From IMG/VR virus record IMGVR_UViG_2541047126_000023: a stretch of 4,520 nucleotides of DNA; one strand, written 5' to 3'. The DNA is from a virus. Its lineage: Duplodnaviria; Heunggongvirae; Uroviricota; Caudoviricetes. Below are positions 1 through 606 of this stretch, one piece after another (the first letter of the stretch is position 1; every line of letters starts with the position of its first letter). Under the pieces are notes generated by a model. It was not told where the DNA came from. It worked only from the letters and a program-made list of their open reading frames with translations, and searched no databases. Position numbers and translations under genes: made by a program.

Positions 1-606
1 ACGCATATGTCACGACAAGTCACGACAGATACAGATACAGATAAAGAATTAAACCCCACACATAACGCGCGCATGCGCGAGAGTGCTCCAGCCAGTGAGT
101 CGAATGGCGCGCCGTTGCAGACAGCAGAACCTGAATACCTGGACGGCCTGAGCGAACCGATCGGGAAATTTCCGATGACTGGTGTCTGGCAGCCGTCGCC
201 GGATTTTCGACAGCGGGCAGCAGTGTGGGGTATGGCTCTGCCTGAGCCGGAATTTACACCTGCTGAGCTTGCCGCATTCCGGGATTACTGGATGGCGGAG
301 GGGAAGGTTTTCACGCAGGTTCAGTGGGAGCAGAAATTTGCCCGTCACGTGCAGCACGTCAGGGCACAGGTAAAACCAGTCAGCAAGGGGGGAAGCCATG
401 CAGCATCAGGTGGCACGGCATCACGGGCAGTTCAGGAAATCCGGGCTGCACGCGAACAGTGGGAACGTGACAACGGATTTATCAGCAACGGAAACGGCCT
501 GGAAGCTGTGGGAGCTCATGGGGGAGGTGTATTCGAACCGCTGGACTCAGAAGAACGGGGCCGCACCTTCGAAGCTCTGGATTGCCCAGATTGGTGCGAT
601 GACTGA
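1..606 (+). CDS. DnaT-domain phage replication protein (primosomal protein I-like C-terminal domain); probably 5'-partial, first in-window ATG at 7
   Basis: Frame 1 is open from base 1 to TGA 604-606. Residues about 50-125 (IGKFPMTGVWQPSPDFRQRAAVWGMALPEPEFTPAELAAFRDYWMAEGKVFTQVQWEQKFARHVQ) match, from memory, the conserved C-terminal domain of E. coli DnaT (KFAMYPDWQPDADF...YWQAEGKVFHHVQWQQKLA). The N-terminal 50 aa are low-complexity (TDTDTD) and look like an interdomain linker, so the true start is probably upstream of the window. Confidence 0.7.
   Translation, partial: THMSRQVTTDTDTDKELNPTHNARMRESAPASESNGAPLQTAEPEYLDGLSEPIGKFPMTGVWQPSPDFRQRAAVWGMALPEPEFTPAELAAFRDYWMAEGKVFTQVQWEQKFARHVQHVRAQVKPVSKGGSHAASGGTASRAVQEIRAAREQWERDNGFISNGNGLEAVGAHGGGVFEPLDSEERGRTFEALDCPDWCDD
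9..42. repeat. Short direct repeats: GTCACGACA x2 (9-17, 19-27) followed by (ACAGAT)x3 (25-42), then an AT-rich stretch and a 12-bp palindrome CGCGCATGCGCG (68-79)
   Basis: Read directly from the sequence. The repeats lie inside the linker-coding part of the replication gene, the position where the lambda origin iterons lie inside gene O. Confidence 0.5.

Follow-up and report, generated by a model that had tools for sequence, protein, structure and literature searches.

The window, that is, the whole 4,520-nt stretch of DNA analysed here, belongs to a lambdoid prophage of E. coli, of which it represents the early-right region. Its left edge lies within a replication initiator gene, of which the 3' 60% is present, comprising a disordered linker, a DnaT-like domain and a C-terminal tail (Table 1). 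By alignment to E. coli O157:H7 FRIK804 (L001), which is the closest complete genome over window positions 1-1100 (95-96% identity), the window starts 432 nt into this gene (CDS at L001 4569-5606). The DnaT-like domain was identified by a match to Pfam PF17948 (E=5.9e-18; residues 57-123 of the frame-1 ORF), and DnaT entries in the PDB match the initiator product at E=1e-19. The stop codon of the initiator gene is overlapped by 8 nt by the start of a lambda-P-like gene coding for a presumed helicase loader. This gene is annotated 'replication protein P' in L001 as well as in L119, an O157 paa prophage, and the identical P-like protein is present on 24 contigs. It is followed, in this order, by a DUF1627 gene, fimbrial gene fragments, the paa adhesin gene, hok/sok and a small ORF. 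Among 5426 complete E. coli genomes, 1260 contain DNA resembling window positions 1-1100, and prophages of O157:H7 and other EHEC strains are among its carriers.

Several further features lie in the downstream part of the window. The DUF1627 gene (window 1094-1828) contains an in-frame TAG at 1145-1147; its homologues in L001-L007 are intact with 232-237 aa, and the annotated CDS in L119 begins after the equivalent point. The ORF fragments at 1958-2436 correspond to a pseudogene of the O157 paa prophage annotated 'fimbrial protein, frameshifted; internal stop' (L119 4449-4982), i.e. decayed cargo beside paa. The paa gene itself (2688-3446), which codes for an AcfC-family adhesin according to the annotation of the closest genomes (Pfam SBP_bac_11), is a cargo gene between the replication genes and hok, and the DNA upstream of it (2440-2690) is very AT-rich and the least stable of the window, with a minimum at 2621-2665. 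The hok/sok toxin-antitoxin locus occupies 3635-3937, with an Rfam sok match at 3635-3784 (103.9 bits), a hokD-like ORF ending at 3937 and an upstream in-frame, mok-like ORF from 3725. At 3566-3589, immediately upstream of the sok match, lies CCGATATGGGAATTCCCATATCGG, which is a perfect 24-bp palindrome.

Table 1. Features of the initiator gene region and the adjoining P-like gene (window coordinates; a dot marks features without a strand)
Feature	Position	Strand	Remarks
Initiator gene, 3' 60%	1-606	+	Frame 1, open from left edge; stop 604-606
Iteron B3, 3' end	1-8	+	Core cut by edge: ACG at 1-3, then spacer CATAT
Iteron B4, GTCACGACA	9-17	+	Core GTCACG 9-14; fourth of five; homologous to L001 5009
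Iteron B5, GTCACGACA	19-27	+	Core 19-24; last copy, abuts hexamer tract; homologous to L001 5019
Hexamer tract, (ACAGAT)x3 then AAAGA	25-47	+	A-rich on coding strand; TRF
Candidate DNA-unwinding element	27-66	.	Least stable 40-mer of initiator and P coding region
Perfect 12-bp palindrome, CGCGCATGCGCG	68-79	.	Read directly
DnaT-like domain	169-369	+	Pfam PF17948
Lambda-P-like gene (presumed helicase loader)	599-1060	+	Pfam PF06992, E=9.9e-16

The first-pass annotation had listed direct repeats, a hexamer tract, an AT-rich run and a palindrome at the left edge of the window, all within the replication gene and ahead of its DnaT-like domain, and had read them as a candidate origin clipped by the edge. 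Direct reading and TRF confirmed each of these elements and their placement in the frame-1 ORF. For the two tandem repeat copies, TRF reports a period of 10, 1.9 copies and 100% matches; for the hexamer tract, with its three perfect units at 25-30, 31-36 and 37-42, it reports a period of 6, 3.8 copies and 94% matches. The AT-rich run, AAAGAATTAAACCCCACACATAA, is at 43-65. Within the window alone, the statistical weight of these elements is weak, because a chance 10-nt two-copy tandem at 3311-3329 scores equally in TRF and a perfect 12-nt palindrome is expected about once per 4.5 kb (4520 x 4^-6 = 1.1). What lies upstream was, therefore, the decisive question, and with the homologous upstream DNA taken into account the signal is overwhelming.

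This upstream sequence was inferred from homologues that are 91-96% identical over window positions 1-1176 or 7-1549; 37 loci align from window position 3 or earlier. In every close homologue aligning from window position 1, the array continues upstream, as the first-pass annotation had anticipated. Window position 1 corresponds to L001 5001, which falls inside a GTCACG at 4998-5003 (within gtcacgcatat). In L001, GTCACG occurs at 4978, 4988, 4998, 5009 and 5019, i.e. three more copies lie directly upstream of the two in the window, giving an array of five copies with 10-11 bp spacing in the linker-coding part of the gene (codons ~137-153; hereafter cluster B). The repeats are not confined to one array as had been supposed. 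A second cluster of six copies (cluster A) is located ~280 bp further upstream at L001 4697-4754, with GTCACG at 4697, 4707, 4717 and 4749, GTCACT at 4727 and GTCACA at 4738, and corresponds to codons 43-62 inside the DNA-binding domain of the same gene. Thus, further copies are present upstream, and the initiator gene lies at the repeats rather than elsewhere. GTCACG occurs 14 times in the 11-kb L001 locus vs 4.5 +/- 1.9 expected, a number reached in 0 of 200 shuffles, and nine of the 14 are on one strand within 330 bp and at 10/11-bp spacing. Both clusters were found in all 46 distinct E. coli-type genes, which have 88-100% N-terminal identity to L001 and do not all align from position 1. 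L001 also contains, at 3666-3746 between racR and a ydaS-like gene, three operator-like repeats that contain CATTAGGC and have dyad symmetry; presumably these are immunity-region operators separate from the origin.

To cover a wider range of initiators, homologues of the N-terminal domain were drawn from a phage collection and IMG/VR, and comprise those of E. coli, Aeromonas, Pseudomonas and Ralstonia phages and metagenomes. In 75 of 75 distinct homologous regions, the strongest 5-mer phased at 10/11 bp forms two clusters, at gene positions ~129-181 and ~390-451. The phasing statistic is 3-10 in these regions; it is <=2 in 520 segments of 620 nt taken from other parts of these loci, and <=3 in 2100 codon shuffles. 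The core motif varies with the initiator subfamily and is GTCACG in E. coli, Aeromonas phage pAEv1818 and Pseudomonas phage phita81A, GCAACGC in the Ralstonia phage Firinga group, GTGACGC in L110-L112, and GAACGC in the ct2G2228 group. In all 70 loci in which both clusters were detectable, the two clusters have the same motif, and the motifs were found independently of each other. This covariation suggests that the cores are probable initiator-binding sites. L109 lacks cluster A, and in L117 the cluster has shifted to another place in the gene, which argues that it follows the DNA and not a fixed position in the protein. In the GTCACG subfamily, an inverted core copy, GTGAC, is present ~30-45 nt after cluster A (L001 4780-4786; L008, L009, L011 at 1693), and in Firinga, GTTGC, the inverse of its GCAAC core, is found at the equivalent place; the inverted copy, therefore, appears to covary as well.

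Directly after cluster B, the DNA has low stability. In a nearest-neighbour scan of 10 homologues, the least stable 40-mer of the initiator gene lies directly after the linker cluster in all 10 (z = 2.1-4.2). As a positive control, the same scan applied to lambda O returned the AT-rich region starting 4 bp after the annotated iteron 4. In the window, the corresponding 40-mer, which is the least stable of the rep and P coding region, is only modestly AT-rich, with 68% A+T. The hexamer tract that forms part of it is purine-rich on the coding strand. Equivalent hexamer tracts are present directly 3' of the repeat cluster in Aeromonas, Pseudomonas, Ralstonia and metagenomic relatives, the relatives' versions being (GATAAA)n, (GATACA)n, (GAAGAA)n and (GAGAAG)n, and the length of the tract varies from 22 to 58 nt among close relatives. 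In the L119 module type, the AT-rich stretch is almost absent.

The palindrome that follows the tract did not hold up as a conserved part of an origin. L001 and L002 have it intact; L006 has an imperfect version, L003 and L007 have lost 6 nt of it, and neither L119 nor the TL-2011b type (L010) contains it. Because it is not conserved, we rejected it as an origin part, and it is probably incidental. In qualitative terms, G+C-rich blocks recur after the hexamer/AT-rich tract in distant relatives, and the palindrome may serve as a G+C-rich boundary to the unwinding element. On the minus strand, window 54-82 (L001 5082-5054), where the palindrome is followed by the complement of the A-rich tract, has a weak terminator-like score. 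With a poor T run and no known antisense transcript, this site is probably meaningless, and we give it no weight. A sigma-70-like promoter was not found within the initiator gene.

Based on these comparisons, we suggest that window 1-66 is the right-hand end of a prophage replication origin located inside the initiator gene. We assign this reading, which is drawn from sequence, a probability of roughly 0.78, and the origin proposal of the first-pass annotation is supported to that extent. The alternative that fares best against it is that the repeats are bound by the initiator mainly for control, while replication truly starts elsewhere; the repeats could then function in autoregulation of rep-P, in copy control by handcuffing or looping, or in a block to homologous phages. 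This alternative would account for the existence of two separate clusters whose distance is variable (157-310 bp apart) and for the lack of a low-stability tract adjoining cluster A. It also has a precedent in SPP1, where G38P is reported to bind a second site, oriR, that stalls forks (PMC3485210). By contrast, cluster B always lies directly before the least stable DNA of the gene. Moreover, in the loci examined there is no other candidate that combines repeats with AT-rich DNA, the sole other nearby repeat family being the operator-like one between racR and ydaS. We therefore consider a mainly regulatory role unlikely, and keep the origin as the preferred interpretation.

A second alternative is that the repeats have no function at the DNA level and are simply a by-product, either of a low-complexity peptide linker or of slippage during replication. 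Cluster B does encode a disordered linker (pLDDT below 50), and the copy number drifts, as does the length of the hexamer tract. In L090, the linker cluster (gene nt ~410-470) has a sixth GTCACGACAA unit (+10 nt) that frameshifts the initiator gene, which indicates that the array changes by slippage and that this can inactivate the gene. However, the repeat period of 10/11 nt is not a multiple of three, and the encoded peptide is consequently not repetitive. With a 10-bp period, copies of the core fall into each of the three frames, so that GTCACG is read as Ser-Arg, Val-Thr or Cys/Gly-His, and subfamilies with other cores have a wholly different peptide at the equivalent place. Insertions and deletions at both clusters amount to 7 aa at the protein level, i.e. 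21 nt or two repeat units. Cluster A, moreover, lies within a folded domain. The synonymous sites of the cores are conserved: among 59 distinct E. coli-type genes, 13.6% of third-codon positions are variable in the cores vs 51.6% elsewhere, with a mean minor-allele fraction of 0.009 in the cores vs 0.110 at the other third positions, and in the spacers between cores 35.7% of third positions are variable. This pattern points to selection on the DNA of the cores and not on the peptide. Together with the phasing statistics and the agreement of the core between the two clusters and with the initiator subfamily, it already largely refutes a by-product, which we regard as very improbable.

Least probable of all is that a winged-helix regulator of the host recognises the phased GTCAC repeats, for example PhoB, which binds CTGTCAT direct repeats at 11-bp spacing (the Pho box): several copies do read TGTCAC, like half a Pho box, at a spacing of about one helical turn, but the spacers are G+C-rich rather than A+T-rich and the core switches to GCAACGC, GTGACGC or GAACGC along with the phage initiator subfamily, which argues for a phage-encoded partner, so that the resemblance to the Pho box is set aside.

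The protein that would recognise the cores belongs to a large family, with 2869 database proteins matching at E<=1e-3. Its PHROGs name is 'replication initiation protein', with weak matches to 'replisome organizer' and 'DnaD-like helicase loader' (E=6e-4 and 9e-8), and NCBI names the E. coli members 'phage replisome organizer'. No Pfam family, PF04492 included, matches the N-terminal domain at E<=1, and the profile of this domain has no meaningful match among PDB chains. In an AlphaFold model computed from 30 sequences, pLDDT averages 70, with 87-96 in the N-terminal blocks and below 50 in the linker (residues 138-195). The N-terminal domain may be a winged helix, with the DnaD-NTD, RepA_N and replisome-organizer group nearest to it by fold, an assignment that is moderately supported. 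In the model, cluster A encodes a hairpin between helices (residues ~47-56) that is the least confident part of the domain. Two other identities for the protein were rejected. It is not a lambda O homologue, given that PF04492 is not hit and that hhalign of alignment A1 vs lambda O yields a probability of ~0.1%. Nor is it DnaT, because the whole-protein equivalog NF002770 scores 90.7 bits vs a cut-off of 201, with a match to residues 192-269 only.

If window 1-66 is part of an origin, the following sequence of events can be envisaged. The predicted winged-helix domain of the initiator would bind the GTCACG cores. As the cores are one helical turn apart, the bound proteins would all be on the same side of the DNA, arranged head to tail, along the five copies of cluster B and the six of cluster A that the homologues contain. 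The bound array would then stress and melt the adjoining A-rich hexamer tract of low stability (window 25-66). Finally, the DnaT-like domain and the P-like protein, judging by the families to which they belong, would bring in the host DnaB helicase. Relatives of the DnaT-like domain bind single-stranded DNA. For cluster A, several functions are conceivable, such as cooperation in initiation, looping to cluster B, control or another role outside initiation. In the strain from which the window derives, the origin may no longer fire, since the in-frame stop in the DUF1627 gene and the fimbrial gene fragments are signs of prophage gene decay.

The comparison of loci that contain the exact P protein of the window revealed that they carry differing N-terminal halves of the initiator. 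The sequences closest to the whole window, those of O157 paa prophages, are 97.3% identical over 43-4520 and have another N-terminal half. Overall, four unrelated N-terminal types, each with its own repeats at the same position, are joined to the same C-terminal module: the type of the window, as in L001, with GTCACG; a DUF1376 type (L002 5297-5405) with TGTTCAAAC, including an inverted copy; an HTH type (L119 2307-2503) with CAAAGACACCCAAA; and the TL-2011b type (L010 1649-1885), with a 28-nt GTAACGC-N5-GCGTTAC... element that occurs twice, 209 bp apart. The homologous part starts at window position 25, 29 or 43, where the repeats meet the unwinding tract or slightly beyond this point. In an alignment of 30 proteins, the N-terminal 160 residues are conserved across beta- and gamma-proteobacterial hosts, and after the 'TDKDKD' linker unrelated C-terminal domains are substituted. 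Comparison thus shows that repeats, unwinding tract and N-terminal domain move as one exchangeable module that joins the C-terminal/P module at window 25-43. The repeat sets of L119, L002 and L010 are candidate origins of three more prophage replication types.

Many database entries for the initiator are 'partial' proteins at contig ends, one cluster having 1121 members on contigs under 1 kb, and the shared C-terminal/P module is present in up to six copies per genome. Taken together, these two observations suggest that short-read assemblies probably break at the mosaic joint. Such a break may be the reason why the window starts inside the repeat array.

It is tempting to combine these observations into a broader picture in which the initiator's own binding sites have partly 'written' its gene. 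One array would occupy the linker and cluster A, within the folded DNA-binding domain, would dictate a surface hairpin (residues ~44-62), so that the DNA specificity of the protein and a part of its own coding sequence must co-evolve. Through looping or pairing, the two arrays would jointly determine or restrict firing, and the A-rich hexamer tract might be more than weak DNA, namely a repeated single-strand-binding motif for the initiator. We offer this picture as speculative, and regard it as rather doubtful.

As for precedents in the literature found, work on the classification of Stx-phage replication regions (Eru types) mentions neither iterons nor origins, origin annotation is absent from all six phage records examined, searches for GTCACG iterons returned only unrelated papers, and the literature on oriJ of Rac contains only a passing remark that oriJ is active. 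The origin of this initiator family, therefore, seems to be undescribed in that literature, and an older description may exist. This large initiator family is of medical relevance, and the series of covarying cores is an unusually clean one. Knowledge of the origin and of its specificity classes would provide a handle on prophage induction and copy number, which drive toxin dose in related phages, and a basis for predicting the incompatibility of co-resident prophages; it would also explain the assembly breaks in the initiator gene. Furthermore, the natural set of covarying cores is a ready-made system for studying joint changes in the specificity of an initiator and its sites.

The principle of an origin inside the initiator gene is itself textbook, and the arrangement works like those of ori-lambda, SPP1 oriL and pSK41 rep. 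In lambda, the origin is inside gene O (PMC7466680). The analogy with lambda that was drawn in the first-pass annotation stands with respect to layout and fails with respect to O homology, the N-terminal domains being unrelated in sequence. As in ori-lambda, repeats are present mid-gene at the interdomain linker, an A-rich tract that is the least stable stretch of the gene follows directly, and the P gene is next. Also as in ori-lambda, the N-terminal domain and the repeats are swapped together against the C-terminal/P module, with the joint at the same place, and the number of repeats varies among relatives (4 vs 6 in lambda and Stx phages). However, the lambda iterons are 18 bp long and form one cluster of four (NC_001416 annotation; four to six in the lambda type), whereas the cores described here are direct repeats of 6-7 bp, one per helical turn, in two clusters, and the C-terminal domain is DnaT-like. 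With E. coli DnaT itself, the initiator has only this one domain in common.

In the Bacillus phage SPP1, oriL is inside gene 38, which codes for the replisome organizer G38P, and repeats (AB boxes) lie there beside an AT-rich unwinding element (PMC5737612). The initiator-embedded origin, the position of the repeats by an AT-rich element and the NCBI name 'phage replisome organizer' are points of likeness, while the host is a different one, the loader is G39P instead of a lambda-P-like protein, and the similarity is marginal and comes from PHROG profiles rather than from the sequence of G38P. In pSK41, the DnaD-like N-terminal winged helix of Rep binds four Rep boxes located centrally in rep, the linker encoded by the ori is dispensable, and the C-terminal domain recruits host replication proteins and binds DnaG primase (PMC5703833). 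The system described here resembles that of pSK41 in having repeats within the initiator gene and in having the linker at the repeats, and perhaps also in a DnaD-like N-terminal winged helix. By contrast, pSK41 is a plasmid of Firmicutes, the C-terminal domain of its Rep is not DnaT-like, and it has a single repeat cluster.
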